64,000 nucleotides of DNA from Longimicrobiales bacterium (GTDB taxonomy: Bacteria > Gemmatimonadota > Gemmatimonadetes > Longimicrobiales > RSA9): assembly GCA_036381195.1 (NCBI GenBank), contig DASVDH010000078.1:10250-74249 (forward strand). The letters run 5' to 3'. Numbering within the stretch: position 1 is the first letter of the stretch; every line of letters begins with the position of its first letter. The translations under genes were made by a program, and so were the position numbers. Positions 17,267 to 62,921 of this stretch are shown piece after piece. Below the pieces are notes generated by a model. That model worked only from the letters and a program-made list of their open reading frames with translations, searched no databases and was not told the DNA's origin.

Positions 17267-19078
17267 TCAGTGACTGCTGCCGCGCGCCGCGGCTGGTGCG
17301 AGCGCCGAGCTCGGCACCGGCCGGCGTGCCGGGCGGGGGTGTTTCACGATGAAGCGGCCGATCGCGAGATAGTCGAGCTTGCCATCGAGGAACGCCCGGA
17401 CGCAGTCGTCCGCGCTACAGACGATGGGCTCCTCGTGCATGTTGAAGCTGGTGTTGATGATGCCGGGCAGGCCCGTGCGCCGGTGATACGCCTCGATGAT
17501 GCGGTGGTACTCGGGATTCACCTCCCGCCGGACGAGCTGGGGGCGGGCGGTGCCATCGATGTGCACGACCCCCGGCATGCGGCGGCGCATCCAGGGCGTG
17601 CAATCGAAGGTGATGGTCATGAACTCCGCCGCGTGCTCCCCGCCTGCGAGGTCCTCGAAGCACGCCTCGCGATGCTCGTAGAGGACGGACGGCGCGAACG
17701 GCATGAACTCCGTGCGGTGCAGGTTCTTGTTCAGCCAGTCGTTCACGCCCGGGTCGGTCGCCTGGTAGAGGATCGAGCGATTGCCGAGCGCGCGCGGGCC
17801 GTACTCCATGCGGCCGGCCGCACGGGCGACGACGTGCCCGGCGGCAAGGAGCTCGGCGATGCGTTCCTCGAACGGAGCGCCAGCGTCGTCGGAGCGTTCC
17901 GGAGTCAGGCCGTACTTCCGCAACGCGGCGGCGATCTCATCGTCATCGAAGCCCGGGCCGAGATAGACGTGCTCGAGGGGGTTCGGGTCCGGCGTCATCG
18001 GGACCGGGAGGAGTCCCGGCACGCAGGCGGCGAGTGCGGCGCCGACGCCGAGACCGCCGTCGCCCATGTGGGGATGGATGAAGATCCGATCCACTTCGGG
18101 AAGCCGATGGACCTCCTGGTTGACCCGGACGTTGGCGAAGACGCCGCCCGCCACAGCCACGTTGCGCAGCCCCGTGCGGCGCGCCCAGTGCTGGACGAAG
18201 CGCGGGACGAGCTCCTCGAAGTGCCGCTGGATGCTCGCGGCCAGGTCCTCGCGCTTCCAGCCCGCCGGCAGCCGCCTCTCCAGTTGCCGGGCCGCCTCGC
18301 CGAAGACGACGCCGGCCCGGTTGATGAACGTGCCGTTCTCTTCGACGATCATGTCCCGCAGGAGGGGGAGGAAGCGCGGCTCCCCGTGTGCGGCCAGGCC
18401 GGTGAGCTTCCCTTCGTGCTTCTGGGCCTTGAACCCGCAGATGTGCGTGGCGTAAGCGTAGTAGTTCCCGAGCGAGTTGAACGCCGCGATGGTGTGGAGG
18501 TGCTCGAGACGGCCGGTTCTGGCGGCGTACACCGTCCCGCTCTTGCCGTCGCCGCCGCCATCGAGCGAGATCACCAGGGCGTCATCGAAGCCGCTGGTGA
18601 AGTATGCCGACGCGATGTGCGCGAGGTGATGGTCCACGAAGTGGATCGGGCACCGGACCCCGAACTCCCGGCGCAAGATGCGACGGATGCTCCGCCGGCG
18701 GTGCCGGAAGGTCGGCTCGAGGAGGAGGTAGTACGCCCTCTCAAGCCCCGGGAGGCGGTCGCGATACCGCGAAAGCTTGCCGGCGGCGCGCTTGATCGTC
18801 CCGCCGAGCCCGGCCGCGCGCTCCCAGTGCTGGAACCAGCCCTCGAAGGGCTGCAGTTCGTCCACGAAGAGATCCTGCCTGGATGACACAAGCACGGCGT
18901 CCAGCTCCTCCACCGTGGTGGCGGCCAGGCGGAGCGTCTCCCGGATGGACGTGCGCGGGAATCCTTCGACCAGCTTCATCCTGGACGTCCGCTCCTCGTT
19001 CAACGCTGCGAGGATGCGGCCATCCTCGGCGATCGCGGCTCCGCTATCGCCCTCTGTGGCGATTCCGAGGACTTTCAT
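17267..19078 (-). CDS. carbamoyltransferase (NodU/CmcH family)
   Basis: ATG 19078 is preceded by GAGGAA. MKVLGIATEGDSGAAI..., HHLAHIASAYFTSGF, and the YrdC/Kae1-like architecture typical of NodU/CmcH. The upstream 181 aa of ORF 17267..19621 are Arg/Pro-rich junk. Confidence 0.9.
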   Translation of the reverse strand: MKVLGIATEGDSGAAIAEDGRILAALNEERTSRMKLVEGFPRTSIRETLRLAATTVEELDAVLVSSRQDLFVDELQPFEGWFQHWERAAGLGGTIKRAAGKLSRYRDRLPGLERAYYLLLEPTFRHRRRSIRRILRREFGVRCPIHFVDHHLAHIASAYFTSGFDDALVISLDGGGDGKSGTVYAARTGRLEHLHTIAAFNSLGNYYAYATHICGFKAQKHEGKLTGLAAHGEPRFLPLLRDMIVEENGTFINRAGVVFGEAARQLERRLPAGWKREDLAASIQRHFEELVPRFVQHWARRTGLRNVAVAGGVFANVRVNQEVHRLPEVDRIFIHPHMGDGGLGVGAALAACVPGLLPVPMTPDPNPLEHVYLGPGFDDDEIAAALRKYGLTPERSDDAGAPFEERIAELLAAGHVVARAAGRMEYGPRALGNRSILYQATDPGVNDWLNKNLHRTEFMPFAPSVLYEHREACFEDLAGGEHAAEFMTITFDCTPWMRRRMPGVVHIDGTARPQLVRREVNPEYHRIIEAYHRRTGLPGIINTSFNMHEEPIVCSADDCVRAFLDGKLDYLAIGRFIVKHPRPARRPVPSSALAPAAARGSSH

Positions 19079-46015: not shown

Positions 46016-47716
46016 TCATCGGCGTGGGGAACGGGCAGCGATGCTGCGGATCGTGAACGTCCCCACGGAGCGCGACGACGGTTCGACCGGAAAGGCGGCG
46101 AGGGCGGCGATGACCCGATCCGGCCCGTATCCGGCCGCGGCGAGGGCCTTCCATGGGTTCTGTTTCGGGGGAACGTCGTAGATGGAGACGATGTCGACCC
46201 GGCCGCCGCCCTCGAGCGCCTGGCGGATGCGGGCGGCGAGGGTGTCCAGTCCCTCCGGCGCAGGATAGCGATCGGCGAGGGAGGTGACCGAAAGCCTGCG
46301 CGTGCGGTCCGGACCGTCGACGAAGAAGAGGAGCTGGTCCACCTCGTCGTAGCCCGGGTAGATCACGAGGTCCGCGCCGGCCAGGGCGTGCTCGAGGAGC
46401 GCGACGCGTTCGGCCCGTGGGTACAGGACGCGGTTTTTCACCATGTCGAGCGCGTTCCAGCCCAGCGTCAGGAGCACGAGGGCGAGGATCGCCGCAAGCC
46501 GACGCCCCCGCAGACGGATTCCCGTCAGCAGGGCCCCCATCGCGATGCCGAGCTGGAAGTAGAACTGGTCGTCCGAGTTGTTCCAGTAGACCGCGAACGT
46601 GAACACCGCGATGCCGATGCCGGCCGCGAGGAGGGGAGCGATCCCCCTCGTTCCGGGCGCGTCCGGATCCGGGGCCACCAGGGAATCGCGGAGCGCGAGC
46701 ACGAGCACGAGAACCCCCGCCAGGCAAAAGGCCAGCGGAGCCAATGACGCGGGCGTCAGCGTCCTGCCATCCCGGATCGCCTCGACCACGGGGGCGAGAT
46801 CGACGATGCTGCTGAGCGAGCCGTACACTGCCCGGGCTGTTGAAACGGTGATCGCGCGGACCGAGAGGTCCGCGCCGTAACCCGCCGCCAGCAGGCCGGG
46901 GGATGCATCGCCACCATAGCTGGTGATCCACGAAACCGGCCCCACCTCTGACGGGCCGACCACGGCCCACGCCGCAATGAGCCCTGCGAGCGCCGTGAGG
47001 ACCGCCCCCAGGCCCAGGCCGGCCGCGATCTGGACGACTCGCCGCACCTCGCGCCGCAGGGCGTACCGCATCCCGATGACGCCGGCAATTGCGAGCGGAA
47101 TCAGGATGTTCGAGATGTAGGCCAGTGCAGCCGCTCCTCCGACCAGGCCAGCAAACACCGCCAGCATCCAGCTCGGGCGCGCCACGTAGGCGACCACCAG
47201 CGCTGCCACACCGGCCAGGAACGGCATCTGGAGCATGTGGATCTCATCCGAGATCCAGAGGCGCGAGAACGCCGACCCCAGCGCAACCCACGCGGTGGCG
47301 AGGTTTGCTTCCAGCCGACCGGGGGCCAGGGGGCCGGCGACACGCCAACGAAAGATGCCGAGCGCAGCCGCACCGCACACGATGCTCAGCCATTTCAGCC
47401 GGTCGGGAGCCGGGCGCGCCGAGCCCAGCCCCGCCGTCACCGCCTGCCACCAGCTCCCCACGGGCTCCAGCAGCAGGTGATTCGGGTTCCACGTCCAGGT
47501 GCCGCGGGTGAACGTCGCGCTGTGCGCGAGACCATCCCCGGAAACGAAGCCGATCGGCACGACGCACAGCACCAGAGCCGGTACGACGAGCCAGAGCAGC
47601 GCGTCTATACGATCGGCTCCGCTTCGTCCGAGCGCTCGGCCGGCAGGCCCAATCGCATGCACGGGCGTGCCCGGCGCGGGGGCAATCGCCTGAGGCTTGG
47701 AATCAGGGGGCACCAT
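46016..47716 (-). CDS. uncharacterised polytopic membrane protein with C-terminal soluble domain (GT-C-like layout)
   Basis: 566 aa with many hydrophobic helices through ~aa 430. The soluble tail runs ...LVIYPGYDEVDQLLFFVDGPD...FTIRSIAARS. No family recognised. Confidence 0.6.
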   Translation of the reverse strand: MVPPDSKPQAIAPAPGTPVHAIGPAGRALGRSGADRIDALLWLVVPALVLCVVPIGFVSGDGLAHSATFTRGTWTWNPNHLLLEPVGSWWQAVTAGLGSARPAPDRLKWLSIVCGAAALGIFRWRVAGPLAPGRLEANLATAWVALGSAFSRLWISDEIHMLQMPFLAGVAALVVAYVARPSWMLAVFAGLVGGAAALAYISNILIPLAIAGVIGMRYALRREVRRVVQIAAGLGLGAVLTALAGLIAAWAVVGPSEVGPVSWITSYGGDASPGLLAAGYGADLSVRAITVSTARAVYGSLSSIVDLAPVVEAIRDGRTLTPASLAPLAFCLAGVLVLVLALRDSLVAPDPDAPGTRGIAPLLAAGIGIAVFTFAVYWNNSDDQFYFQLGIAMGALLTGIRLRGRRLAAILALVLLTLGWNALDMVKNRVLYPRAERVALLEHALAGADLVIYPGYDEVDQLLFFVDGPDRTRRLSVTSLADRYPAPEGLDTLAARIRQALEGGGRVDIVSIYDVPPKQNPWKALAAAGYGPDRVIAALAAFPVEPSSRSVGTFTIRSIAARSPRR

Positions 47717-47827: not shown

Positions 47828-49384
47828 TTACGGCGGAAGCGGCTCCGATTCCCGGCCAGGAACAACCCGGTACAGCGTGACCTCGCCTTTGTGCGCCACG
47901 GGCTCGGCGTGTTCCATGATCAGCGCGCTCGCCCGTGGATCATCTCCCGCTTCTACGATGAACTCGTACTGGGCGAGAATGCGGTCCCAAGCGAGCGGGC
48001 TGTATTGCCTCGTGCCCCAGTCGTCGCCCGGATGGTAGAGGCGATCCGGCACCCAGAAATGGAGGAGCTGCTGCCCGTTCCCGTTACCGGAGAAGAGGTT
48101 GGGAGCACGACCCTGCCGCTTGATCGTATGCCAGTGAGCGAAGTGGCGGTAAGCCGGGATTCGGCCGTGCCGGCGCTGATCCGAGACCAGCGGTAGCACG
48201 TTCGACCGGGCGGGGAGCAAGTCCAGTACGGCAGCCATGTCCGCCAGCTCCCGATCGATGACGACGGCGCGATGCCCTATGACGGCAGCGTGCACCAGGC
48301 ATCCGAGAAACGGCAGCAACAAGAAGACGCGCCTCGGCGGCGACTCGCGAGCAGGACAGCAGAAGATCAGGAGCAGGCCGGGAAGGAGGAAGCGGACATC
48401 GACATCCTCCGCGCCCATGAACGTCGCCGGAAACACCAGATAGGCGATAAAAAGGCCGGCCGTAGCGAGCGCGAGGGAATCCCGCTTCCGCTGGAAGCGG
48501 TGCCAGACGCCAAACAGGAGGACTGACGCGAAATAGGTGCCTGCCATGAGCGCGGCCTGCGCGGGCGAAAAGGAGTAGAACGGCGCGAACACGTGGGTCG
48601 CCTTGCTCAAGGCGCCGCGCATCTCGGTCGTGTACGCGGGCAAGGGAGCGCCTGGCGCGTAAGCTTTGGCAGCCAACCACGCGCTGCCGACCGCCAGCGT
48701 GACCGCCACTGTCGCCCAGGTCCGTTGGTCGCGGATCGCTCGCCGGACGTGGAGCTCCCCCGAGCCGAGGTGGAGCGCTGTATCCGTCCACGCCACGATC
48801 AGGGCGACGGCGGCGGCGGAGAGGTGCACGAAGTAGAGCGCCAGGGCGCCTACCGCCAGCAAGAGGCCGGCTGCGGCCGATGGGTGCGTGCGGTATCGCC
48901 ACCATCCCGCGATCCACAGCATGGCCAGACCAACGCCCACGGCATAGCTGACGAATCCGATGAGGAAGAACCAGTTGAACGCGAGCAGCGCTCCGATCAG
49001 GGCCCACCCGCGTGCGGCCGGCGCCTTGGCCCGGAGGAGCAAGTACATGGCGACAGGGGTGAGATTCACGGCCACGAGAGACAGCACTCGTTGCGCAGCG
49101 AGCGGCGGCATCAGCCCGACCAGGATCGCGCCCACTGCATCCATGCCCAGATAGGCGGTGGGAACGAATCGGAACTCGGCAGGAAACGGTGGCGGTTCTC
49201 CTCCCCAGATCTGCGCCAGCAGGACGTATCGGGCCAGGTGGTTGGTCGCATCCGTGTACGGGAAGTACTGCACCGTCAGCACGACGGCGGTGTTGGCCGC
49301 GATGGCGATTCCCAGGAGCAGCGCCTCCCGGGAAAGCATGCGGTGTCGGCCCCCATCCGCTCTCGTCGAGTTCCAGGATGGCAT
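47828..49384 (-). CDS. uncharacterised polytopic membrane protein with C-terminal soluble domain (GT-C-like layout)
   Basis: ATG 49384 is preceded by AGGAG, 7 nt upstream. 518 aa with hydrophobic helices through ~aa 370. The soluble tail ends ...KGEVTLYRVVPGRE. No family recognised. Confidence 0.65.
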   Translation of the reverse strand: MPSWNSTRADGGRHRMLSREALLLGIAIAANTAVVLTVQYFPYTDATNHLARYVLLAQIWGGEPPPFPAEFRFVPTAYLGMDAVGAILVGLMPPLAAQRVLSLVAVNLTPVAMYLLLRAKAPAARGWALIGALLAFNWFFLIGFVSYAVGVGLAMLWIAGWWRYRTHPSAAAGLLLAVGALALYFVHLSAAAVALIVAWTDTALHLGSGELHVRRAIRDQRTWATVAVTLAVGSAWLAAKAYAPGAPLPAYTTEMRGALSKATHVFAPFYSFSPAQAALMAGTYFASVLLFGVWHRFQRKRDSLALATAGLFIAYLVFPATFMGAEDVDVRFLLPGLLLIFCCPARESPPRRVFLLLPFLGCLVHAAVIGHRAVVIDRELADMAAVLDLLPARSNVLPLVSDQRRHGRIPAYRHFAHWHTIKRQGRAPNLFSGNGNGQQLLHFWVPDRLYHPGDDWGTRQYSPLAWDRILAQYEFIVEAGDDPRASALIMEHAEPVAHKGEVTLYRVVPGRESEPLPP

Positions 49385-49755: not shown

Positions 49756-52700
49756 TCAGTCCGGGGTCCAGATCACGATGTCCCAGATATACTCGACCTG
49801 GTCCATCCGCGGCGAATTGAAGACGGACGGCAGTGCAAATCCGCGGAAGCCCTGCACGTCCATCGCCGCGGTCGTGTCCATGATCTTGGTGCCGTTGACC
49901 CACGCCACGATGCGCCCGTCGCTTCGGCCCGGAGCCGTCGCGGCCTGGTAATACACGGTGATCGTCAGGTCCTCCGCGATGTGGTCCTCCGGGAACCAGT
50001 TTGCGTACCTCGCCACCCCCTCGGTATCCAGGCGCACGCTGAACCGCGACGGCGCCGGACCGCCCCAGATCACGTCGGTTCTGCCGTCGTTCCCGGCATC
50101 ACCACCCGTCGACGGGTCACCCCGGCCCATGATCGTCATCTTGCGCCCCGCGTTCCCGCCCGTACCGCAGTTCGGGTTCGTGATCGCGAATTCGTTCACC
50201 GCGCCGAAGGAGGTGTTCGTATCGGCGGGGTGGCGGCCCATTCGCATCTTCCATTGCATGTAGATGCGCCTGGGGGAGCTGCCCTGCTGCTCGCCTGCGA
50301 AGACGTGCGCGATCTTGTGCGTTTGCTCGGAACAGGTCCCGCCCCAGCCCCGCCATTCGATGCGATAGGCGTTCGTGCCCCGGCCATTGAAATTGCGACT
50401 GAACTTGATGCCGGACGTGTACTCGAGGCCAGCGATCGCTTGCTGGAGCGACGTAGCGCTCTGGAGCGATGCCCGCGTATCGAACAGGATGCGGTCACCC
50501 TGTCCTGGCTGCGGATCCCCGCCCTGAGAGGGCCGCGTCACGGTAATGGTCGCACTCCCGCTCTTCCCCTCGCTCCTGGCGGTGATCGTGGCAGTCCCTT
50601 CCCCCACGCCCCGGACGAGCCCGCCGGACGTCACCGTGGCCACGCCGGTGTTGGAGCTGGACCACTCCACGGCGCGGCCGTTGAGCGTGTTCCCGCTCTC
50701 GTCCTTCAGCGTCGCCGTGAGCTGGAGCGTGCCGTCGACCGGGATCGTCCCGGAGGACGGCGAGACCGTGACCGTGGCCACGGGCGCCGGCCCGCTTCCG
50801 CCGCCGCCGGAGCCGCCGCCGCAGCCGATCCGCTGTGTGCTGACGACCAGGTTATCGAAGTAGCGCTCCTGTTGCCGCGGCGCTCCGTTGTTCCAGTAGT
50901 TTTCCAGGAACAGGGCGTTGATCCCGTAGGCGCTGTAATTGCCCACCCAGTTCAGGTTCGTCGCGCGTGCCTCGAGCTGCCCGTCGATCCACAGCTCGAA
51001 CACCCCGTTGCTCTGCCCGGGGTCGTTCACCCGCACGTGGGATTCGATGCAGTGCCATTCTCCGACATGCGCGGCGTCGAAGATCGGCGTGCTGCTCGTC
51101 TGCGCGCCCAGCCAGCGCAGGTTGCCGAAGTCGTTGTACCCGGTCGTGCGGACGTTGCCCTGCTCGTCCGTGCCCGATGCAGGATCGAGCACCAGGTAGT
51201 TGTTCCCGCTGCCGCCGCTCCAGACGTGGGCGATGAGCGCCTCCGACCAGTCCTCGCGCGCGAAGATGATCGCACGGGCCAGCTTGTCCCCGCCGCCTCC
51301 GCTCCAGTCGGGCGCGTTGCGGAGGTAGACCCGCCAGTAGATGTCCCGATAGTTGGCGGTGCCGGCATCGACCGGCCGCATGTAGGACGACGGTGTCTTT
51401 CCGAATGCGAGCTTCAGGTTCCCCGCGTTGACCTGGCCGGCGCTGAACCGGGCCCGCATCCCCCCCGAACCATCGATCCCCACGCCCGCCGCGCGCACGA
51501 AGGCGCCGCCGCGCTCGTCGTACTCGAAGTACTGGCTGAGGCGGTCCTGATCGAAGTCGTCGCACCAGATCCAGCCGTCGCCCGGTTGGGAGCACTCGTT
51601 GACGAGGCTCGCGCTGCCGCCGCCTCCACCGCCGCCACCACCACCGCTCACCGTGATGTGCGCTTCCGCGCTCTGGTCCCCGCTCTCGGCCCTGATGGTC
51701 GCCTCGCCGGGGGCGACCCCCCGCACCAGGCCGGTTTCGTCAACCGCGGCGATGGCTTCGTCGGAAGACCTCCAGGCGATCTCCGCCCCCGGGATGGGGT
51801 TGCCGTTGGCATCGGCCGCGGTGGCGGTCAGTTGGAGGGTCTCGCCGACGCCGACCGTGCCCGTATCGCGGTCGAGCGACAACGAGGCCACGACCTGCCG
51901 CACCTCGATGCCGGCGGTGTCCGCCTCGCCACAGCAGACGGCCGTGGCGACGATCAGTGCGGTCCCGACGGCTTTGGCCGTGACTCTGCCCATGGTGTCC
52001 ACCGTTGCAATGTGTGAATCAAGGGAGGTCCACACGATCCGGACGCCGGACACGACCGAGCCGTCTGCCGTGTAGGCGGTGGCTCCAAGTTGCAATGTAG
52101 CGCCGATGGCGTCCAGGGTGCCCGTGTGGGGTGTGATCTCGACTCGCGCGACCGCCGCCTCCTGCCGGACCGCGACGGTCACGGTGTCCGCAATGTCTCC
52201 GGCCGACGCGACGATCTTCGCGTCCCCGCTCTGATGGGCCGTGGCGAGGCCGCTCTCGTCGATCGAGACGACGGCCGGCGCCAGGGAAGCCCAGCTCACC
52301 GCGACGTCGGGGATCTCGTGCCCGTTGCGGTCCCGGGCGATCGCCACGAAACGGAGCGTGTCGCCGAGCTCCACGACCACCTCTTCCGGGGGCTCGCCGT
52401 CCGGAGACGTGCCCGCCGGGAGCGCCGACAGGGAGGCGACCTTCTGGCGGACGGTGATGGTCGCGGTGTCCGCGAGAGAGCTCACGGATGCCTCGATCCG
52501 GGCTGTTCCGACCGCTTCCGCCCGGACCAGACCGTCCGGGCTGACGGTCGCGATCTCCGGGTCGAGACTGCGCCACGAGATCTTCGCTCGTGGGCTCAAG
52601 AGTCCGTCCGCCGTCTCGAGTTCCGCCGAGAGACGGATCGTATCCCCCAACGCCTCCAGCTCGGCCGTGCTCGGTTCGAGCACGATCCGGAAGGCATCCG

Positions 52701-52791
52701 GATTCGACTCGATCAGATCTCCGAACTCGCAGGCGGAAGCCACGACCAGACCAACCGCCATCAGAAAGATCCCGGTCCCGCGCCTGAGCAT
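49756..52791 (-). CDS. large secreted lipoprotein: 5 Big_2 (bacterial Ig-like group 2) domains + two beta-jelly-roll (ConA/polysaccharide-lyase-like) domains
   Basis: ATG 52791 (GAGG 8 nt upstream) gives MLRRGTGIFLMAVGLVVASAC, a signal peptide plus lipobox. Four tandem ~85-aa repeats have the Big_2 pattern (...LxLxAxxxDxxGxxxxxxxVxWxSSDxxIATVxxxGxVxAxxxGxAxI...). Then come a poly-Gly linker, a ~230-aa jelly-roll-like domain, a GS linker, a fifth Big_2 and a second ~250-aa beta-rich domain. Confidence 0.8.
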   Translation of the reverse strand: MLRRGTGIFLMAVGLVVASACEFGDLIESNPDAFRIVLEPSTAELEALGDTIRLSAELETADGLLSPRAKISWRSLDPEIATVSPDGLVRAEAVGTARIEASVSSLADTATITVRQKVASLSALPAGTSPDGEPPEEVVVELGDTLRFVAIARDRNGHEIPDVAVSWASLAPAVVSIDESGLATAHQSGDAKIVASAGDIADTVTVAVRQEAAVARVEITPHTGTLDAIGATLQLGATAYTADGSVVSGVRIVWTSLDSHIATVDTMGRVTAKAVGTALIVATAVCCGEADTAGIEVRQVVASLSLDRDTGTVGVGETLQLTATAADANGNPIPGAEIAWRSSDEAIAAVDETGLVRGVAPGEATIRAESGDQSAEAHITVSGGGGGGGGGGSASLVNECSQPGDGWIWCDDFDQDRLSQYFEYDERGGAFVRAAGVGIDGSGGMRARFSAGQVNAGNLKLAFGKTPSSYMRPVDAGTANYRDIYWRVYLRNAPDWSGGGGDKLARAIIFAREDWSEALIAHVWSGGSGNNYLVLDPASGTDEQGNVRTTGYNDFGNLRWLGAQTSSTPIFDAAHVGEWHCIESHVRVNDPGQSNGVFELWIDGQLEARATNLNWVGNYSAYGINALFLENYWNNGAPRQQERYFDNLVVSTQRIGCGGGSGGGGSGPAPVATVTVSPSSGTIPVDGTLQLTATLKDESGNTLNGRAVEWSSSNTGVATVTSGGLVRGVGEGTATITARSEGKSGSATITVTRPSQGGDPQPGQGDRILFDTRASLQSATSLQQAIAGLEYTSGIKFSRNFNGRGTNAYRIEWRGWGGTCSEQTHKIAHVFAGEQQGSSPRRIYMQWKMRMGRHPADTNTSFGAVNEFAITNPNCGTGGNAGRKMTIMGRGDPSTGGDAGNDGRTDVIWGGPAPSRFSVRLDTEGVARYANWFPEDHIAEDLTITVYYQAATAPGRSDGRIVAWVNGTKIMDTTAAMDVQGFRGFALPSVFNSPRMDQVEYIWDIVIWTPD

Positions 52792-53001
52792 GCAGCTGCC
52801 TCGTTCGTCGCGATTGAACCAAAGACCACCGAGCGTGAATCCCCCGGAGGGCAAATCTCCGGATCACCGGCGGCCAAGCGGGCGTGGCGGGCGGGGAGCC
52901 CGCTGTAGCCCTCGACTCTGCGCTCCCGTCTTTCCGCGGGTTTGCTCTGAGCAACGACGATGGTGGGCTTTGGTCTTGTTCGCGGCTCGGTCGCCCGGAG
53001 C

Positions 53002-53582: not shown

Positions 53583-54356
53583 TCACCACGCGCCCAACCT
53601 GAACGCGATGACGGGGAGGGTGCGGAGCATGATCTTGAGGTCCTCGAGGGCGGACCTGCGCTGGATGTATTCGAGGTCGTACTGGAGCTTGCGGCGCACG
53701 TCGTCGATGGAGCTGTCGTAGTGATGGTTGATCTGGGCCCAACCCGTGATGCCCGGGAGCACGTGCTGCCGGTCGGAGTACCGCTCGATCTGGTCGCGGA
53801 GCCGCATGAAGATGGCGGGCTGCTCGGGACGCGGCCCCACGATGTTCATGTCGCCCTTGAGGACGTTGATGAGCTGGGGCAGCTCATCCAGGCGGTAGGC
53901 GCGCAGGATGCGCCCGATCCTCGTGACGCGGGGGTCGTCGGGCGCGGCCCAGACGGCGCCGGCACGATCCGCGTCGGGGACCATCGTGCGGAACTTGTAG
54001 AGCTTGAAGAGCCGCCCGCCGTAGTCCACGACGCGGCGGTGTCCGCCGGGCGAGCGTTTGCCGCGCCGGCGGTCGATGCCGACCCGGATCTGGGTGAAGA
54101 AGACGGGTCCTGGGGAGGTGAGCTTGATCGCGATGGCGATGACGAGCATCAGCGGCGCCGCCAGGAGGAGGCCGATGGCCGCGACCGAGAGGTTGAGCAG
54201 CCGGAGGGACCAGGAGTCCCGTGCCGGGATGTGTCGAACGACCGCGGTGGTGTCCAGGCCGTGCAGGTCCGGGGCGGTGCCATGCGCGTAGCGGCCATCG
54301 ACGGGGCGCGGCCGCACGCGGAGTTGTCGTACGCTGGCGATGCTCTTGGATGTCAT
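53583..54356 (-). CDS. polyprenyl-phosphate sugar-phosphate transferase (bacterial sugar transferase, WbaP/EpsB C-terminal type)
   Basis: ATG 54356. One TM helix (LLNLSVAAIGLLLAAPLMLVIAIAI) is followed by SPGPVFFTQIRVG, KFRTM, DELPQLINVLKGDMNIVGPRP and GITGWAQI. Confidence 0.9.
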   Translation of the reverse strand: MTSKSIASVRQLRVRPRPVDGRYAHGTAPDLHGLDTTAVVRHIPARDSWSLRLLNLSVAAIGLLLAAPLMLVIAIAIKLTSPGPVFFTQIRVGIDRRRGKRSPGGHRRVVDYGGRLFKLYKFRTMVPDADRAGAVWAAPDDPRVTRIGRILRAYRLDELPQLINVLKGDMNIVGPRPEQPAIFMRLRDQIERYSDRQHVLPGITGWAQINHHYDSSIDDVRRKLQYDLEYIQRRSALEDLKIMLRTLPVIAFRLGAW

Positions 54357-54435
54357 GCGCTTCTCTGCGTGCTGATCGGGGTGCGATACCTCGCATAGGG
54401 CCCAACCGGGCGAGGGTGGGCGGGCGGGAAGCAGG

Positions 54436-54451
54436 TGCAACGGTCGTGCGC
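54436..54451 (-). promoter_or_regulatory. weak sigma-54 promoter-like sequence upstream of the sugar transferase gene
   Basis: Minus strand reads GCGCAC-GACCG-TTGCA. The -12 element is perfect, but only one of the two invariant -24 G residues is present. Confidence 0.25.
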
Positions 54452-54613
54452 GTGGCGGGAGGGGTGGAGCTGCGGTCGTAAGTCGCTCTGTTGCCGCTAG
54501 TTGCGATCGTGAGGGTGGTTGGCGCCGGGGCGGCGGTCTTGTGGCGGGGTGGCGACTTCTGTGGGCGGGGCGCCACACGGGGTGTGGCGGCGGGAGGGGG
54601 CGGGCGCCCTGGG

Positions 54614-55731
54614 TCAGACGAGGGCCGCGGGGGGCAGGTGGAGCTCGAAGAAGAACCGTGTCCCCCACCCTCGCCGGGTTTCGAAGCGGAGCTCGGAATC
54701 CATCGCCGCGAGGAGCTTGCGGCAGATGGCGAGGCCGAGGCCGGTGCCGGAGAAGCGCCAGCCGCTCGCGCGGTGGCGGTCCGGGCGGAAGGGTTGGTAG
54801 AGCGAGGCGACGACGTCGGGGTCGATGCCGTTGCCGGTGTCGCGGACGGAGAACTCGACGCGAGAGGCGGCGCAGGGGTGGGCGACGATCTCGATGAACC
54901 CCTCGTCGGTGAACTTGAGCGCGTTGCTCGTGAGGTTGAGGAGGACGCGGCTGAGGGCGACGGGGTAGCCGAGGCGCCGGTCCGCGTCCGGGGGCAGGAG
55001 GCGGATGGTGAGCCCTTTTTCCTCTGCCATGGGCTGGACGATGTCGGCGACGGACTGCAGGATCTCCGTGACGGAGAACGGAGAGGGCTCCGTCTCGGTG
55101 AGGCGATCGCCGCTGCGGGCGAGCTCGATGACGTCGCTGGCGACGGAGATCAGGCCGAGGGCGGCGCTGTAGATGATGCCGAGCTGGCGCCGCTGGGTAT
55201 CGCTCACGGGTCCGCTCCGGCCTCGCCGCAGGGTTTCAGCGAGGAAGAGGATGGAGGTCAGGGGGGACCGGAGGTCGTGCGCGAGCTCGATGGCGAGCTC
55301 CAGGCCGTCCGGGCGCAGCAGGCGCATGGCGAAGGAGTCGGCATCCACCGGCTCTGGCTCGGTGGATCCGCGCAGCCGCTCGAGGTTCTGGAGCGTGCGC
55401 AGCATCTCGGGGGTCGGGGGCGACACGGGCGCACGCGCCCACTCCAGCAGCAGCTCGGCCCTGAAGCGGTCGAGGATGGGCGGCGGGAGGAGGGGGCCGG
55501 CGCTGTCCTGCGCGAGGCGCGGGGCGTCTGGCGCGTCGGACTCGATCGCGCGGGCGAGAGCGATGAGCTCCCGGATGGGGAGTTCGCCGTGGCCGCCGCG
55601 CGAGGGGTCGGCGGACTCCTCGGCGATGCGGCGGACGGCGGCCCGCAGGGCCGGGGAACGGATGGTTTCGAGCGAGCAGGAGTCGGCGGCAGCGGCGTCG
55701 CGCGATGGTCGTCGTTCGAGCTCGGGCAGGC

Positions 55732-55735
<4 letters not shown>
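54614..55735 (-). CDS. soluble sensor histidine kinase (HisKA + HATPase_c)
   Basis: ATG 55735 overlaps the stop of the response-regulator gene (ATGA). H-box ELAHDLRSPLTSI, N-box LLNLTSNALKFT, G1 VRDTGNGI and G2 GTGLGLAI. No hydrophobic helix in the ~150-aa N-terminal region. Confidence 0.85.
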
Positions 55736-57282
<1,547 letters not shown>

Positions 57283-57903
57283 GGGGGGACTACCTCCGTC
57301 GAACGATACAAGATTGGATCGTGGCGCGGGCCGGAGTCGGGGCGAGTCCGAAGCCGTCCGGCGGGGCGGCGGCCGTCCGCGACCGACTCGGTCGCAGGTC
57401 TATCGGGCCGGGCCGGCGCATCATTGGGGAACGGCGGCTGGTGCCGCTTCTCGCCGTGAGCGCCCTGGCGGCGCGCGACGCACGACGCGGAGCGGACGTG
57501 CGGGGCGTTGCCGGCACCGGGATCGCGAGCCAGGGGACGACCGCTCGAGCCGACACTCGTGAGTTCCTTGGCTGCGCTGCCGACCCGGGAGCGAGTGATG
57601 AAGGCCATGGCAGCGTCCATGGACGGACTCCACACCATCGGCAACGCTGGCCGATGCGGCCGGCAGAGCGGTCGCGGCGGCCTCAAGTAGATAGCTGAAA
57701 CGGGTGGCGCTGTCAATGGCCGAGGCACCGTTTCGTAGCGGGGGCGCGACAGGCCCCGGGCGGAGGAGGGGGCGCAAAGTGTGGTGCTCGCGCAACAAGA
57801 CGAGGGGCGGGCTGCCCGGGATTTGACGCCCGTGTGCGGGGAGAGCGGCGGCACGGCGCGGATCACGAGGCAGGCGTGGGCGGGCGCGGTGCGGATCCGC
57901 CTG

Positions 57904-57919
57904 CGGTACCGGGATTGCG
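57904..57919 (+). promoter_or_regulatory. candidate sigma-54 (-24/-12) promoter upstream of the Wzc-like gene
   Basis: Plus strand reads CGGTAC-CGGGA-TTGCG. GG and GC have exact spacing, with two flanking mismatches. Predicted TSS is near 57931, about 67 nt before ATG 57998. Confidence 0.4.
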
Positions 57920-57997
57920 GGCGAGCCCGCCGCGAGCCGTGGGTGGAGGCGACCGGGGTGGTGGCCGTTTCAGACGTTCAAGAGGTGGCTTCGATCG

Positions 57998-60418
57998 ATG
58001 TCGAGCAATCTTCCGACGACGCCAGGGCCGGTGGAGCTGCAGATGGCCGCGAGCGAGCCGGGCCAACCGGCCCGGGCGGTGCCTGAGCTGGGCGCCGGTG
58101 CCTCGTTCAACTGGCGCCGCTACGTCTCGATGGTGCTGAGGCGGAAGTGGCTGGTGCTGGGCATCACGGCGTTCGGCCTGGCGGCGGGCGTCCTGGCGAC
58201 GCGGTTCATGAGCCCGGTGTACGTGGCAAACGCGACGCTCTGGATCGAGGCGGACGACCGGCGCGGGTCGAGCCCCGGACCCATCCGCCCGGATGGATTG
58301 CTGGAGGCGTGGGGGTGGCGCGAGCTGCTGAGGTCGTACGTGGTGCTGGACCACGTGGTGCGCGAGGCGCTGCTGTACGTGACGCCGCAGTCGCCGGCTG
58401 ATTCGGCGTTGTTCAAGGGGTTCGGGCTCAAGGAGTCGTTCCGGGTCGGAGAATACTCGCTGAACGTGGCGGAGGACGGGCGGACGTTCGTGCTCGCGGG
58501 TGAGGGCGGCGTCGAGATCCAGCGGGGCGTGGTCGGCGATTCGGTGGGTGCGGGCGTCGGTTTCCAGTGGGTCCCGCCGGCAGAGGAGATGCGGCCGGGC
58601 CGGGTGGTGAAGTTCAGGGTGGGGTCACCGCGGGATGCGGCGGATGCGCTGGCTGCGGCCCTGGACGTACGCATGTCCGAGCGAGCATCGAACTTTATGC
58701 GGATCTCGCTGGAGGGCACGGATCCGGTGCGGATCGCGCGGACGGTGAACGCGGTGGCGGAGCGGTCGGTGGAGGTGGCGGCGGAGCTGAAGCGGGCGAA
58801 GCTGGACGAGTACACGGAGATCCTGCGGGCGCAGTTGGAGACGGCCGAGCAGAATCTGGCGGCGGCGGAGACGGCCCTGGAGAGTTTCCGGGTCCAGACG
58901 ATCACGTTGCCGTCGGAGCGGACGGTGATGCAGGTGGCGCCGGGGCTGCAGCAGACGCGGGATCCGGTGTTCGCGCGCTACTTCGACATGAAGGTGGAGC
59001 TGGACGAGGTGGCGCGTGCGCGGGAAGGGATCGAGCGGGTGCTGGCGGAGGCGCGAGGGGGAGAGCTCTCAGTGGCAGGCCTGGAGGCGATCCCGGCGGT
59101 GCAGCAATCGTCGGAGCTGAGGGCGGCATTGAGCGAGCTGACGGATGCGCGTGCGGAGTTGCGGGCGCTGCTCCACCAGTACACGCCGGAGCATCCTGCG
59201 ACGCGGCGGCTGGAGGCGCAGATCGACACGCTGGAGCGGCGGACGATTCCGCGGCTTGCGACGGTGCTGATCGGGGAGCTGGCGACGCGGGAGGCGGAGC
59301 TCGCGGCGCAGGTGCGAGGCGCCTCCGCAGAGCTGCAGGCGATTCCTCCGCGGATGATCGAGGAGGCGCGGCTGATGCGCCAGGTCGCGATCGCGGCGGA
59401 CCTGTACCAGTCGCTGCAAGCGTCATATGAGGAAGCGCGTCTCGGGGCGGAGAGCAGCATCCCGGACCTGCGGATCCTGGACATGGCGGCGGTTCCGCGA
59501 CGGCCGGTGAGGGATGAGCGGCCGAGGGCGATTCTCCTCGCGTTCCTGGGGAGTCTGGGGCTCGCGGTGGTGGGCGTGGTGTTGCTGGAGAAGGTGGATC
59601 CACGTGTGCGGTACCCGGAGCAGGTGACACGGGAGCTCGGGCTGCCGATCCTGGGCGCGGTGCCCCGGCTGGAGACGCCGGGCGGGTCGGTCCAAAGCGG
59701 GTCGGAGAGCGCGGCGCATGTGATCGAGGCGTTCCGGGGGATCCGGCTGAACCTCGCCTATGCGGCAGCGGCGGACGGCGGGCCGCTGCAGGTGACGGTG
59801 ACGAGTCCGGGTGTCGGGGATGGCAAGTCGTTCGTCAGCTCGAACCTCGCGCTGGCCTTCGCGGAGCTGGGGAAGCGGACGCTGCTCGTGGATGCGGACA
59901 TCCGGCGGGGTGTGCTCCACCGGCTGTTCGGGCGGACCCGCAAGCCCGGCTTGACCGATTACCTGGCGGGGGATGTGACCCGGGAGGCGCTGGTCCAGAG
60001 GACGCGGTACCCGATGCTGGACCTGATCGGATCGGGCACGCGGATGCAACGGGGGCCGGAGCTGCTTTCGACTGCGGCGCTGGGGGAGCTGCTCGACGCG
60101 CTGCGCTCGGAGTACCAGGTCATCATCGTGGACACAGCGCCGTTGAGCGCCGGTGTGGACCCGTTCGTGTGCGGGACGGTGACAGGCCGCGTGCTGATGG
60201 TGCTGCGGACAGGGATGACGGACCGTGAGCTGGCGGGTGCGAAGCTGGGCGTGCTGGACCGGCTGCCCGTCGAGGTGGTAGGGGCGGTGCTGAACGACGT
60301 GACCCGGAGTGGCACGTACGGCTACTACTATCGGCTGTACGGCTACTCGGCGAATTACGAGGTGGTGGGGTCGGAGGAGGAGACGGAGACGCTCGTGGCC
60401 GGCGAGCGGCGGAGCTAG
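57998..60418 (+). CDS. polysaccharide co-polymerase / BY-kinase (Wzc/GumC-EpsG type, chain-length determinant fused to tyrosine autokinase)
   Basis: N-terminal Wzz-type region with TM helix (WLVLGITAFGLAAGVLATRF), a long coiled-coil and a second TM. Walker A SPGVGDGKS, A' LLVDADIRRG and B VIIVDTAPL. Tyr-rich tail GTYGYYYRLYGYSANY. Confidence 0.9.
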   Translation: MSSNLPTTPGPVELQMAASEPGQPARAVPELGAGASFNWRRYVSMVLRRKWLVLGITAFGLAAGVLATRFMSPVYVANATLWIEADDRRGSSPGPIRPDGLLEAWGWRELLRSYVVLDHVVREALLYVTPQSPADSALFKGFGLKESFRVGEYSLNVAEDGRTFVLAGEGGVEIQRGVVGDSVGAGVGFQWVPPAEEMRPGRVVKFRVGSPRDAADALAAALDVRMSERASNFMRISLEGTDPVRIARTVNAVAERSVEVAAELKRAKLDEYTEILRAQLETAEQNLAAAETALESFRVQTITLPSERTVMQVAPGLQQTRDPVFARYFDMKVELDEVARAREGIERVLAEARGGELSVAGLEAIPAVQQSSELRAALSELTDARAELRALLHQYTPEHPATRRLEAQIDTLERRTIPRLATVLIGELATREAELAAQVRGASAELQAIPPRMIEEARLMRQVAIAADLYQSLQASYEEARLGAESSIPDLRILDMAAVPRRPVRDERPRAILLAFLGSLGLAVVGVVLLEKVDPRVRYPEQVTRELGLPILGAVPRLETPGGSVQSGSESAAHVIEAFRGIRLNLAYAAAADGGPLQVTVTSPGVGDGKSFVSSNLALAFAELGKRTLLVDADIRRGVLHRLFGRTRKPGLTDYLAGDVTREALVQRTRYPMLDLIGSGTRMQRGPELLSTAALGELLDALRSEYQVIIVDTAPLSAGVDPFVCGTVTGRVLMVLRTGMTDRELAGAKLGVLDRLPVEVVGAVLNDVTRSGTYGYYYRLYGYSANYEVVGSEEETETLVAGERRS

Positions 60419-61338
60419 ACGGGGCGGGTGGCGCCCTCGGTCTGGAAGTCATCGGCGACCTGGACCGGGCTCTCGCTGCTCCCGGCCTTGTGGAGCGCGA
60501 GGGTCGCGCGGACCAGGAGGTCCGCCGGGGCGATCGCGGTTTCGCGGAAGCTCGAGACGCCGGCGCAGCCGACGCGGAACTGGCGCGGCGTGTCGCCGGC
60601 GGGGTCGGGCGCGCGTTCCCGGATCACGCGGAGGATGCGTTCGGCCGCGATCCGGGAGCCCGCGGGTCCGGTGCCGGTGGCGAGGATGACGAACTGGGAT
60701 GCGCCGAGCCGGCCGACGACATCGGACTTGCGGACCGTGTCGCGGAACGTTTCGGCGAATCGCCTTAGGAGATCGGGGTCGTCGGGGCCGGGCGCGAGCG
60801 CGAAGATGATGCACGCCATGGGGCGGTCGTGGCGCGCGGCGTCAGCGCCGATCTCCCTGGCGCGCTGGAGAATGCCGCGCAGGTTGTAGAGGCCGGTGGC
60901 CTCGTCGAGAAGGCCGTGATCGCGCGCGTGATCGCTGTCGAGCTTGGCGCGCGCGAACGCGTTGAGCTTGAGCACGAGCTCTTCGGCATCGAGCGGGAAC
61001 CCGATGATGTCCCAGGCGCCGGCCTTGAGGGCCTCGAGTCGCTGTTGTCTGGTCGCGGGGCCCGCGGTGGTGAGCAGGACCGGCGTGCTCCTCAGGAAGC
61101 CGGGGTCCCTGCAGATGAGCCGGCAGGTCTCGATGCCGTCGGGCTCGGGCAGGTCCACATCGAGCAGCAGGATGTCCGGGCGGGAGTTGCGGAACGCTTC
61201 GATGGCGTGCTTGCCGCTGGAGGCCCGCAGGACGGCGAATCCGTGGGGGCCGAGGATGCTCTCAATGGACCAGCCGATCCATTCCTGATCGCTGGCAACG
61301 AGGACGAGGGGTGCCGCCGCGCCGTTCGCTGGCTTCAT
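60415..61338 (-). CDS. response-regulator receiver fused to a degenerate GGDEF domain
   Basis: ATG 61338. REC (PDILLLDVDLPEPDG, VLLTTAG). GGDEF-like domain (DEATGLYNLRG..., RKSDVVGRLGASQFVILA, ...LLVRATLALHKAG). The active site reads GASQF instead of GG(D/E)EF. RKSD occupies the RxxD I-site position. The stop shares the tetranucleotide CTAG with the Wzc stop. Confidence 0.8.
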   Translation of the reverse strand: MKPANGAAAPLVLVASDQEWIGWSIESILGPHGFAVLRASSGKHAIEAFRNSRPDILLLDVDLPEPDGIETCRLICRDPGFLRSTPVLLTTAGPATRQQRLEALKAGAWDIIGFPLDAEELVLKLNAFARAKLDSDHARDHGLLDEATGLYNLRGILQRAREIGADAARHDRPMACIIFALAPGPDDPDLLRRFAETFRDTVRKSDVVGRLGASQFVILATGTGPAGSRIAAERILRVIRERAPDPAGDTPRQFRVGCAGVSSFRETAIAPADLLVRATLALHKAGSSESPVQVADDFQTEGATRPV

Positions 61339-61777
61339 GTGCTCGCTGTTCCGTGTTGTGACGCACGGGAAGCGGAGAGTCAGATCGAGGAGCGGCTTGC
61401 CGCGAAGGGCAGCCACTCGCGGGACGGATTCCGGCCTCTCGCTTTCGGGCCCGTGATGTTGCAGGAATCGTGCGACGAGAGGGACGAGGGCGCCGCGCCG
61501 ATGCCTGTGGCCCTTGCGCATCCGCGGGCCGCGCCGGCCGGGAGGCCGGTTGCGGCGCGGAGGCGACACTTTGCTCCCGGGCTGCTACACGCGGGCCGCC
61601 CGGCGGAGAGCGAAGAGGGGTCGTCGGAGGCGGAAGCGGCCCGGAGAGAACGGCGTGCAGCCGTGCTGCCGCCGGCCGGCGCCGAGGCGGCATCGATCTT
61701 GAAAACGCGGCGGCCCGGATTGATCATCGCGCTGCCGAAGGCGCCATCTTCGGCGTGTCCTATTCCAGAGTGGGAGC

Positions 61778-61793
61778 GGGGACATGCTTTGCG
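61778..61793 (+). promoter_or_regulatory. weak sigma-54 promoter-like sequence upstream of the Wza-like gene
   Basis: Plus strand reads GGGGAC-ATGCT-TTGCG. GG and GC spacing is exact, with a C-to-G mismatch in the -24 element. It overlaps the ATG of the small ORF 61784..62020, so the two calls are mutually exclusive. Confidence 0.3.
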
Positions 61794-62020
61794 AACGGTG
61801 CTCGGCCAGCCGGGCCCGGCGGGGGGCGAGGGCGGTTCCAGCGGCACCGGATTGTCCGGCGGGAGAACGTTCGTTGGCAGGGGTGGTCTGCGCGTCCTGC
61901 GGCGCGTTGTTGCCGCAGGATGCGACGGACGTGCTCCTCGAGACGCTGGCGCAGCTCGCGCGATTCGGGCTGGTCCCGGAAGGGCAGCCGCTGTTCGAGA
62001 GCGTGCGGGCACGGAGCTGA
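61784..62020 (+). CDS. possible small zinc-ribbon protein (78 aa)
   Basis: ORF-track ORF MLCERCSAS...(29 aa)...VVCASCGALL..., i.e. CxxC-N29-CxxC. By my count about 80% of third codon positions are G/C. The C-terminal half is non-repetitive (DATDVLLETLAQLARFGLVPEGQPLFESV). No homologue recognised. Confidence 0.35.
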   Translation: MLCERCSASRARRGARAVPAAPDCPAGERSLAGVVCASCGALLPQDATDVLLETLAQLARFGLVPEGQPLFESVRARS

Positions 62021-62096
62021 ATTGGGAAGGCCGGGTGCGACGCGTGCCCCCTCCGGGCACGCAGCGCCGTTGGATCGGCGGATCGGAGAGTCCATC

Positions 62097-62921
62097 ATGG
62101 GCAGTACTGGAAGGAAGGTTCTCGGCGTGCTGAAGCCGGGCTCGATGGCGGTCCTGCGCGTGGTCCTGGCGGGTTGCGCGGTGCTGCTGGGCGGGCGGGC
62201 AGCGCAGGGGCAGACGGCCGCGTCGTGGGATCCCGGCCGGCCGAACATGACGCGCGCGGCGCTGGAGGATCTCCTCGCCCGCTATGAGCAGGCGACGGCA
62301 TCGCCCGGGTACACGGAGGAGATGCGAGAGCGGGCGCGCTACGAGGCATCCTTGATCCGGGCGCGGTTGGAGGAGGGGGATTTCCAGGTGGGGGATCGCA
62401 TCCTCCTGGTCCTCGAAGGTGAGGAGCAGCTCTCGGATACGTTCGCGGTGGCGCCGGGCCCGGCGCTCCTGCTGCCGGTGGTGGGCGAGATCCCGCTGAA
62501 GGGCGTGCTGCGGTCCGAGTTGGAGGACCACATCAGGGAGCACCTCACGCGCTTCTACCGGAATCCCGTGGTGCGGGCGCGGGCGCTGATCCGGATCGAG
62601 GTTTACGGGGAAGTGACGCGGCCGGGGTTCTACGTGCTGGCGCCGGAGACGCCCGTGACGGACCTGTTGATGAGGGCGGGTGGGATGACGCGGGAGGCGG
62701 ACCAACGGTCCATCCGGGTGGAGCGAGGTGACCGCACCATCTGGGGGGCCGAGGCGCTGCGGCAGGCGATCATCGAGGCGCGGACCCTGGACCAGCTCAG
62801 CGTGCGGGCGGGGGATCGGCTCGTGGTGCCGCGTAAGAGCACATGGAGCCTCGGCGAGATGCTGCGCGTGGGGGCGTTCGTGCTCCCCTCCGTGGTCACG
62901 CTGGTGACGCTGCTCAGATGA
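62097..62921 (+). CDS. polysaccharide export lipoprotein (Wza/Poly_export + SLBB-like, short form)
   Basis: ATG 62097 (GGAGAG 8 nt upstream). Signal peptide with lipobox VLAGC. DFQVGDRILLVLEGEEQLSDTF (Poly_export-like), GEVTRPGFYVL and VRAGDRLVVP (SLBB-like). C-terminal hydrophobic helix. Confidence 0.8.
   Translation: MGSTGRKVLGVLKPGSMAVLRVVLAGCAVLLGGRAAQGQTAASWDPGRPNMTRAALEDLLARYEQATASPGYTEEMRERARYEASLIRARLEEGDFQVGDRILLVLEGEEQLSDTFAVAPGPALLLPVVGEIPLKGVLRSELEDHIREHLTRFYRNPVVRARALIRIEVYGEVTRPGFYVLAPETPVTDLLMRAGGMTREADQRSIRVERGDRTIWGAEALRQAIIEARTLDQLSVRAGDRLVVPRKSTWSLGEMLRVGAFVLPSVVTLVTLLR

Follow-up and report, generated by a model that had tools for sequence, protein, structure and literature searches.

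The locus described here raises the question of what is sensed, and what is controlled, by a protein in which a receiver (REC) domain is joined to a degenerate GGDEF domain and whose gene abuts that of a tyrosine kinase involved in polysaccharide export. It lies within a 64,000-nucleotide stretch of DNA (70% G+C; termed here the window) from contig DASVDH010000078.1 of a Longimicrobiales bacterium. According to the original prediction, this REC plus degenerate GGDEF (REC-dGGDEF) protein is a receptor for cyclic di-GMP (c-di-GMP) that couples the level of this second messenger to the adjacent Wzc-like bacterial tyrosine kinase (BY-kinase) and to the export machinery. The analysis reported here agrees with the first of these proposals: judging from the residues that its family has kept and lost, the protein is quite likely a non-catalytic binder of c-di-GMP. 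For the second it points to other partners, namely a histidine kinase and a sigma-54 activator; a complete chain, leading from a c-di-GMP-sensing pseudo-response regulator through this kinase/sigma-54 system to wzc, is given about an even chance of being correct.

A degenerate GGDEF domain and its I-site

The gene is read from an ATG at 61338, a start that agrees with the N-termini of homologues as well as with the NCBI gene call (P0001, 'response regulator [Longimicrobiales bacterium]', whose identity to the window protein and coverage of it are both 100%); a longer open reading frame (ORF) starting with GTG at 61569 (384 aa) was rejected on the same two grounds. Pfam assigns residues 12-125 to Response_reg (64.1 bits; cutoff 30.2) and residues 190-287 to GGDEF (PF00990; 43.4 bits; cutoff 23.8), the latter aligning with profile positions 58-156 only. 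Membership in the GGDEF class is likewise indicated by the generic NCBIfam model TIGR00254 (43.6 bits; cutoff 37.4). NCBIfam holds no specific family for the protein, the best matches being PleD, whose 89.5 bits compare with a cutoff of 474, and DgcR. An AlphaFold2 (AF2) model built from 30 homologues (mean pLDDT confidence score 87.4) shows a receiver and a GGDEF fold with a long helix (residues 118-141) between them; when this model is compared with solved structures using Foldseek, its best full-length match is DgcR (6zxb; template-modelling scores 0.70/0.73), followed by WspR and PleD, with 3ign also among the matches.

Individual residues were placed by HMMER alignment to PleD, DgcR, 5euh and 3ign (for DgcR, an offset of +5 between chain and published numbering was derived from R206). 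These alignments bear out the domain-level reading of the original prediction in each of its parts. The segments DEATGLYNLRG and LLVRATLALHKAG (the latter resembling ADxALYxAK) align with GGDEF landmarks as had been claimed, and GASQF falls on the GGEEF of PleD and DgcR, that is, in place of the catalytic GG(D/E)EF motif that active cyclases carry. Likewise, ACIIFALAP stands where PleD-type cyclases have '..IDIDFFKKINDTFGH' and is accompanied by an 8-residue deletion relative to PleD; hence the metal-binding Asp residues and the GTP loop (PleD positions D327, K332, N335 and D344) are absent. The primary allosteric I-site, on the other hand, is intact: R203 and D206 of RKSD, a motif identical to that of DgcR, fall on R359 and D362 of PleD, with the same spacing of five residues before the active-site (A-site) motif. 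Two additional arginines, R234 and R169, occupy positions that in relatives belong to the c-di-GMP site: a role of PleD R390 in that site has been described (PMC8041772), and DgcR R163, a secondary I-site Arg, contacts c-di-GMP from the partner subunit (PMC8041772).

The protein belongs to a large family. At least 530 homologues occur in a 90%-clustered database, and relatives were found in 298 species-representative genomes, of which the best 80 are nearly all from Gemmatimonadota (three short contigs among them are assigned to other phyla, which may be binning errors). A profile search of 1.84 billion cluster representatives yielded 2333 matches at E <= 1e-30; the top 150 all score above 287 bits, a level exceeded by more than 150 clusters at 50% identity. 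Conservation was examined in two sets: 195 distinct close homologues and 150 diverse cluster representatives that are 31-49% identical to the window protein. The peptide patterns used to scan genomes cover residues ~23-33 and 155-164, so that the 100% values for R159 and E162 are partly circular; R203, D206, R234 and R169 fall outside these patterns.

Each of these four I-site residues is present in all 195 close homologues. Among the 150 diverse representatives, R203 and D206 are retained in 147 and R169 in 148, as is R234, for which the other two sequences have gaps. Of only five invariant columns in the 40 most divergent representatives, three are the R, D and R of the I-site. The catalytic positions have fared quite differently: the second Gly of GGDEF is found in none of the close homologues and in 6 of the 150 diverse ones, the family consensus at the GASQF position being G-[PRQ]-[STG]-[ED]-F. 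Position 179, which corresponds to the metal-binding Asp, is F, I, L or V (with one M) in the close homologues and is never Asp in the 345 sequences of both sets, where it is F, L, V or I and rarely M, C or A. The family has kept D-x-TGL-x-N, an element in the N-terminal part of the domain. Because these motifs are conserved across hundreds of homologues, their placement is not due to chance; and because I-site residues are nearly invariant while catalytic residues, and often the phospho-acceptor of the receiver, have been lost, selection has kept the c-di-GMP site. The loss of catalytic positions throughout the family makes the REC-dGGDEF protein very unlikely to be a diguanylate cyclase, as had been predicted, and the pattern of family conservation, though indirect, argues strongly for a c-di-GMP receptor whose receiver domain is atypical or a pseudo-receiver.

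The receiver and the gene neighbourhood

The receiver retains its phospho-acceptor Asp, D60, as was claimed from the sequence initially, and Thr at T90. Alignment to PleD REC1 also upholds the claim that the conserved receiver Lys (CheY K109, PleD K105) has been replaced, F114 being found at that position. In place of the usual acidic DD pair the window protein has S16-D17, a point absent from the original prediction, and family members mostly have N/S followed by D/S. Thus, among the hallmarks of a phosphorylatable receiver, the acceptor Asp is present and the Lys and the DD pair are missing. The Lys is absent from every family member in both sets. D60 occurs in 96% of close homologues and in 93 of the 150 diverse representatives (62%), the remaining 57 having A, S, N, E, G or H instead; the beta4 Thr is present in 75 of the 150 (50%).

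To see which neighbours accompany the gene, these were mapped by tblastn onto the related loci of the best 80 genomes, with the REC-dGGDEF gene set on the + strand. Two layouts account for the 68 loci compared. In layout A (47 loci) a Wza-like gene (-) precedes the REC-dGGDEF gene (+), which converges on wzc (-), beyond which lie the sigma-54 activator (+) and the kinase (+); in layout B (21 loci) the REC-dGGDEF gene (+) is followed directly by the sigma-54 activator (+) and the kinase (+). No Wzc was detected in the fetched locus for 22 of 24 layout-B loci (counting three with a short downstream flank; full 10-kb flanks on both sides were available for 13 of the 24). Proteins from the two layouts are intermixed inside sequence clusters; the layouts represent rearrangements around one orthologous gene rather than two paralogues. 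The most constant neighbours are the sigma-54 activator and the kinase: where the flank is long enough, the former lies at most 4 kb from the REC-dGGDEF gene in 56 of 56 loci and the latter at most 6 kb away in 49 of 49. On the upstream side, 43 of 62 loci have the Wza-like gene as the divergent neighbour.

In the window, wzc and the REC-dGGDEF gene are convergent and, as originally noted, their stop codons share a single CTAG at 60415-60418 (the TAG of wzc being 60416-60418 and the minus-strand stop 60415-60417); the corresponding gene calls in L001 overlap by 4 nt. This arrangement had been taken as a sign of partnership, a reading that does not hold up well: the overlap is seen in few lineages only, the window, L086 and L093 among them, and the activator and kinase are more constant companions. 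Coupling of c-di-GMP to the BY-kinase and export is not well supported for a related reason, since Wzc is adjacent in only 47 of the 68 loci.

The neighbouring proteins themselves are readily classified. Wzc has the Walker A, A' and B motifs of a BY-kinase (GVGDGKS, LLVDADIRRG and VIIVDTAP), a C-terminal Tyr cluster (YGYYYRLYGYSANY) and a TIGR01007 score of 124 bits (NCBIfam cutoff 108). The best NCBIfam match of the sigma-54 activator is PEP_resp_reg (TIGR02915), whose 371 bits fall below the cutoff of 502.6, so that it is not assigned to the PrsR type. Pfam gives no match to the N-terminal ~150 residues of the kinase, and no transmembrane segment is seen by eye in the kinase (no predictor was run).

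For more divergent family members, contexts were taken from single look-ups, two contigs being too short for use. One distant member in which D60 is replaced by Ala retains the layout A context, as does one further distant member; another with the same replacement has a LuxR-type response regulator on one side and a kinase on the other; one is followed by a kinase alone; and one is divergent from Wza-Wzc, with a next gene that starts with a receiver like that of the sigma-54 activator. In two distant members the gene that comes next downstream encodes an orthologue of the window kinase (55-59% identity over ~290 residues), a level of identity that exceeds that between the REC-dGGDEF proteins; neither wzc nor a sigma-54 activator is nearby in these two.

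A connection between the activator and wzc is suggested by a sigma-54-type -24/-12 element, CGGTACCGGGATTGC, located upstream of wzc (Table 1). With the element defined as GG-N10-GC and at most 2 mismatches allowed, matches occur upstream of wzc and on its strand in 31 of 41 layout-A loci, versus 6.4 expected from shuffled sequences; on the opposite strand they occur in 9 of 41, versus 5.3 expected. Among related loci, no such enrichment was found between the Wza-like and REC genes or upstream of the REC gene where the activator directly follows. Given its convergence on the REC-dGGDEF gene, wzc probably forms a transcript of its own that starts from this sigma-54 promoter, which the divergently encoded sigma-54 activator probably controls. 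A weaker second match is present at 57512-57526 (+). Six loci of one group in which the activator directly follows the gene (L065, L071, L072, L077, L078 and L081) have a near-consensus element, TGGCGCGGCAATTGC, between the REC-dGGDEF and activator genes (~11000-11025, +) and a second one, TGGCCCCGACCTTGC, some 6 kb further on (~17300-17420, -); these elements hint at autoregulation of the activator-kinase operon.

The receivers of the REC-dGGDEF protein and the sigma-54 activator, which are 27% identical overall, have in common an unusual alpha4-beta5 motif: ALKAGAWDII (60997-61026, -) in the former and ALRAGAWDYL (~56857-56886, -) in the latter. Of 66 activator orthologues, 57 carry ALRAGAWDY[LI], and across the dGGDEF family the Trp reaches 99% conservation; the reason for the motif may be a common interface, or a kinase that serves both receivers.

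Mechanism and rival explanations

In the mechanism proposed here, the I-site of a dead cyclase would have been retained and put to use in sensing c-di-GMP. By analogy with inhibited DgcR and PleD, the protein would form a homodimer held together by a stalk made up of the receivers and linker helices, and intercalated c-di-GMP dimers would cross-link the two GGDEF domains, shifting the geometry of this stalk or repositioning the receivers. Synteny suggests that the output would go to the co-conserved histidine kinase and NtrC-type activator, likeliest through docking of the pseudo-receiver on the kinase, and that this docking would tune activation of the sigma-54 promoter before wzc. In other words, c-di-GMP would control expression of the BY-kinase rather than act on the Wzc protein directly. 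A more specific and more doubtful version, offered tentatively, is that of a phylum-wide, free-standing pseudo-response regulator whose only conserved functional site is the I-site and whose c-di-GMP-bound receiver either docks on the soluble kinase or heterodimerises with the receiver of the activator, thereby gating sigma-54 transcription of the BY-kinase gene.

Several observations weigh against this mechanism. The window protein retains D60, D17 and T90 and may therefore still be phosphorylated. Its link to the kinase is drawn solely from gene neighbourhood, and about 70% of close relatives have wzc directly beside this gene. Matches to the sigma-54 element are not enriched over the window as a whole (48 versus 51 expected), the one informative test having been the strand-specific comparison of sequences preceding wzc in related loci, and in L085, where wzc has been relocated, no such site was found upstream of it. 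Moreover, a 54,870-bp contig from JGI sample 3300067032 carries, in an EPS (exopolysaccharide) cluster, three REC(-dGGDEF) paralogues (317, 307 and 313 aa) within 7 kb, the third convergent with Wzc-Wza-Bac_transf; no two-component system was found within 8 kb of this locus.

The last of these observations also favours the model put forward originally, in which c-di-GMP bound at the I-site would turn the protein into a post-translational adaptor acting on the Wzc kinase domain, or on Wza/Wzc export, so as to control polymerisation or export. I-site conservation fits this model equally well, and the convergent Wzc of 47 of the 68 loci, the divergent Wza of 43 of 62 and the overlapping stop codons of the window, L086 and L093 all speak for it. 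It is nevertheless considered unlikely: within the flanks available, no Wzc was found in 22 of the 24 loci in which the activator directly follows, and sequence clusters mix the proteins of these loci with those from Wzc-adjacent ones; two genes that converge do not share a transcript; greater constancy as neighbours is shown by the kinase and sigma-54 activator; and a literature search turned up no earlier case in which a GGDEF receptor places a BY-kinase under the control of c-di-GMP. A different explanation dispenses with nucleotide sensing altogether and casts the protein as a conventional second response regulator that the neighbouring kinase drives by phosphorylation, or as a phosphate sink of that kinase, with RxxD and the additional arginines serving structural or dimerisation roles. 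In its favour are the retention of D60, D17 and T90 in the window protein (and of D60 in nearly all close homologues), the histidine kinase that is always encoded alongside, and the unusual motif A[LY]RAG[AV]W[DE][YF][LI], which the two receivers of the locus have in common. But the receiver Lys is absent from every member, and in the 57 of 150 diverse representatives that lack the acceptor Asp every I-site residue is still present, the context being unchanged in those for which it was seen. In GGDEF structures, furthermore, the RxxD residues and the two arginines lie on the surface. The documented role of these positions is c-di-GMP binding (PMC8041772), and the phosphorylation-driven alternative is accordingly rated as improbable.

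Least credible of all is a weak residual diguanylate cyclase with an unorthodox active site, comparable to some AGDEF-type enzymes. An excerpt of one report describes an active Vibrio cholerae cyclase with an AGDEF motif (PMC3974145), and the D-x-TGL-x-N element is conserved in the family. However, GASQF differs from the canonical motif at three of five residues, the metal position is never Asp, the GTP loop (the region of PleD K332, N335 and D344) is deleted or variable in length, and the Pfam GGDEF model aligns from profile position 58 only; a cyclase is thus regarded as very improbable. Sensing of c-di-GMP by a non-catalytic protein that acts through the kinase/sigma-54 system is therefore preferred over these alternatives.

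The wider locus and known systems

Coordinates of the principal features are collected in Table 1. The window locus is a Wzx/Wzy-type EPS locus: in addition to the genes listed, the region at ~37-54 kb encodes glycosyltransferases, an AsnB-type amidotransferase and a Big_2/polysaccharide-lyase-like protein. This last protein (49756-52854, -; 1032 aa) has five Big_2 repeats, Big_1 domains and a weak polysaccharide-lyase-14 match, and is followed by two large ORFs (47828-49384 and 46016-47716, -) with coding-like G+C content at third codon positions and no Pfam match. The activator, kinase and Bac_transf genes are arranged head to tail (53583-57282, -), with ends that overlap or abut (the activator/kinase overlap being 55732-55735), an arrangement suggestive of a single transcript for the two-component system and the first enzyme of EPS biosynthesis. 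The same order occurs in L002 and L085.

Table 1. Features of the window discussed in the text (positions in the window; strand as read)
Feature	Position	Strand	Basis or remarks
REC + degenerate GGDEF protein gene (P0001)	60415..61338	-	307 aa; ORF, Pfam, NCBI match
Atypical receiver domain, residues 12-125	60964..61305	-	alignment to PleD REC1
D60 codon, phospho-acceptor position	61159..61161	-	aligned to PleD D53
Degenerate GGDEF domain, residues ~142-290	60469..60915	-	Pfam, TIGR00254, PDB alignments, AF2 secondary structure
R169 codon, DgcR R163 equivalent (secondary I-site Arg)	60832..60834	-	profile alignment to 6zxm/6zxb
RKSD (R203-D206), primary I-site RxxD	60721..60732	-	aligned to PleD R359xxD362, DgcR R206xxD209
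GASQF (G212-F216), in place of catalytic GG(D/E)EF	60691..60705	-	aligned to GGEEF of PleD and DgcR
R234 codon, PleD R390 / DgcR R237 equivalent	60637..60639	-	alignment
Wzc-like BY-kinase gene	57998..60418	+	806 aa; Pfam Wzz, GNVR, AAA_31, CbiA; TIGR01007
Sigma-54-type -24/-12 element CGGTACCGGGATTGC	57904..57918	+	80 nt upstream of wzc ATG
NtrC-type sigma-54 activator	55732..57282	-	canonical REC, GAFTGA, HTH_8; Pfam Sigma54_activat 224 bits
Histidine kinase	54614..55735	-	373 aa; HisKA, HATPase_c (Pfam)
Priming sugar transferase (Bac_transf)	53583..54668	-	directly downstream of kinase, same strand; Pfam 204 bits
Zinc-ribbon-like small ORF	61784..62020	+	78 aa; divergent, directly upstream of REC-dGGDEF gene
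Wza-like outer-membrane polysaccharide export gene	62097..62921	+	Pfam Poly_export + SLBB

The 78-aa ORF contains CxxC...CxxCG and a conserved C-terminal 'LAQLARFGL', and has only sub-threshold zinc-ribbon matches in Pfam. It has been called as a gene in L001 and L085, the two being homologous. Searches with an iterated hidden Markov model show that 52 of 77 related loci have it in the same place, and in none of these does it turn up elsewhere. At 61699-61727 (+) there is a match to a sigma-70-like promoter; another promoter candidate, GGGGACATGCTTTGC at 61778-61792, was dropped inasmuch as its ATG is the start of this conserved small ORF. Rfam searches of 57000-62300 (E up to 1) detected neither a c-di-GMP riboswitch nor any other RNA family. 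Canonical GGDEF proteins with RxxD and GGDEF intact (e.g., RRVDYVCRYGGDEF) are encoded in three Gemmatimonadaceae loci, L026 (18182-19648, -), L044 (18024-19229, -) and L051 (18928-20436, -), at 8-9 kb from the REC-dGGDEF gene, which implies that c-di-GMP synthesis exists in the phylum.

Degenerate GGDEF sensors of c-di-GMP are already known; the family described here is uncharacterised and lacks a curated family model, and the regulatory setting in which it is found may be new. The family occurs widely across Gemmatimonadota, a phylum abundant in soil and sediment for which there is almost no signalling genetics, and it marks a conserved EPS-locus module in which the sensor is combined with a soluble kinase, a sigma-54 activator and, in front of wzc, a sigma-54 promoter. 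If the proposed mechanism is correct, this module would provide a testable route from c-di-GMP to Wzx/Wzy-type polysaccharide production, representing a previously undescribed form of c-di-GMP control over Wzx/Wzy EPS and a new wiring of the messenger into two-component signalling; it would also be a clean natural case of an allosteric site that selection has kept after catalysis and phosphorylation were lost. A literature search returned nothing that describes the REC-dGGDEF family, a c-di-GMP receptor from Gemmatimonadota or the action of any GGDEF receptor on Wzc.

The closest known protein is DgcR of Leptospira biflexa, a Rec-GGDEF cyclase (6zxb/6zxc/6zxm) that is both the best full-length structural match and the best profile match of the window protein. 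Both have one REC domain, a long linker helix and a GGDEF domain, and the positions of DgcR R163 and R237 are also represented in the window protein. DgcR, however, is an enzyme that makes c-di-GMP, equipped with GGEEF, metal-binding Asp residues and a receiver of canonical type, its I-site serving in product inhibition; in the window protein, which is without the catalytic apparatus and the receiver Lys, the I-site could serve only in sensing. Functionally, a parallel is offered by PopA of Caulobacter crescentus, a PleD paralogue of the REC-GGDEF type that has a degenerate A-site and an intact RxxD and that is a phosphorylation-independent c-di-GMP receptor, acting as a polar adaptor for ClpXP-dependent proteolysis. 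The window protein resembles PopA in containing REC and in combining a degenerate A-site with an intact RxxD. It differs in having, according to Pfam and the AF2 model, a single receiver rather than the two of the PopA-type REC-REC-GGDEF architecture, in being encoded within an EPS locus with a sigma-54 two-component system and in belonging to another phylum, and there is no specific sequence kinship beyond the domains.

PelD, PssE, CdgA, CdgG and GdpX6 likewise bind c-di-GMP via the RxxD of a degenerate GGDEF domain, and PelD and PssE switch on exopolysaccharide synthesis; none of the five has a receiver domain, which the window protein does have. PelD, in particular, is a membrane-bound GAF-GGDEF subunit of a synthase-dependent system, whereas Pfam finds REC and no GAF domain in the window protein, and the Wzx/Wzy-type locus in which it is encoded carries Wza, Wzc, Bac_transf and glycosyltransferases but no pel genes.

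Two further systems connect c-di-GMP with two-component signalling. In Myxococcus xanthus, the receptor element of the kinase SgmT is a GGDEF domain with an I-site. An excerpt of the source (PMC3509222) describes SgmT as a c-di-GMP receptor that, together with the DNA-binding response regulator DigR, regulates extracellular-matrix composition; the logic is the same as that proposed here, in that c-di-GMP is fed into a two-component system. The arrangement differs, the GGDEF domain being fused to the SgmT kinase, whereas the window protein is separate from its putative kinase, is equipped with a (pseudo-)receiver and has a sigma-54 activator as the downstream regulator. In Caulobacter crescentus, a sigma-54 activator, TacA, acts as the regulator downstream of the kinase ShkA. 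An excerpt of another source (PMC7010744) describes how c-di-GMP controls that kinase by binding to a pseudo-receiver. There, however, the c-di-GMP site is on a pseudo-receiver inside the kinase itself, rather than on a GGDEF I-site, and the regulon concerns the cell cycle and morphogenesis.

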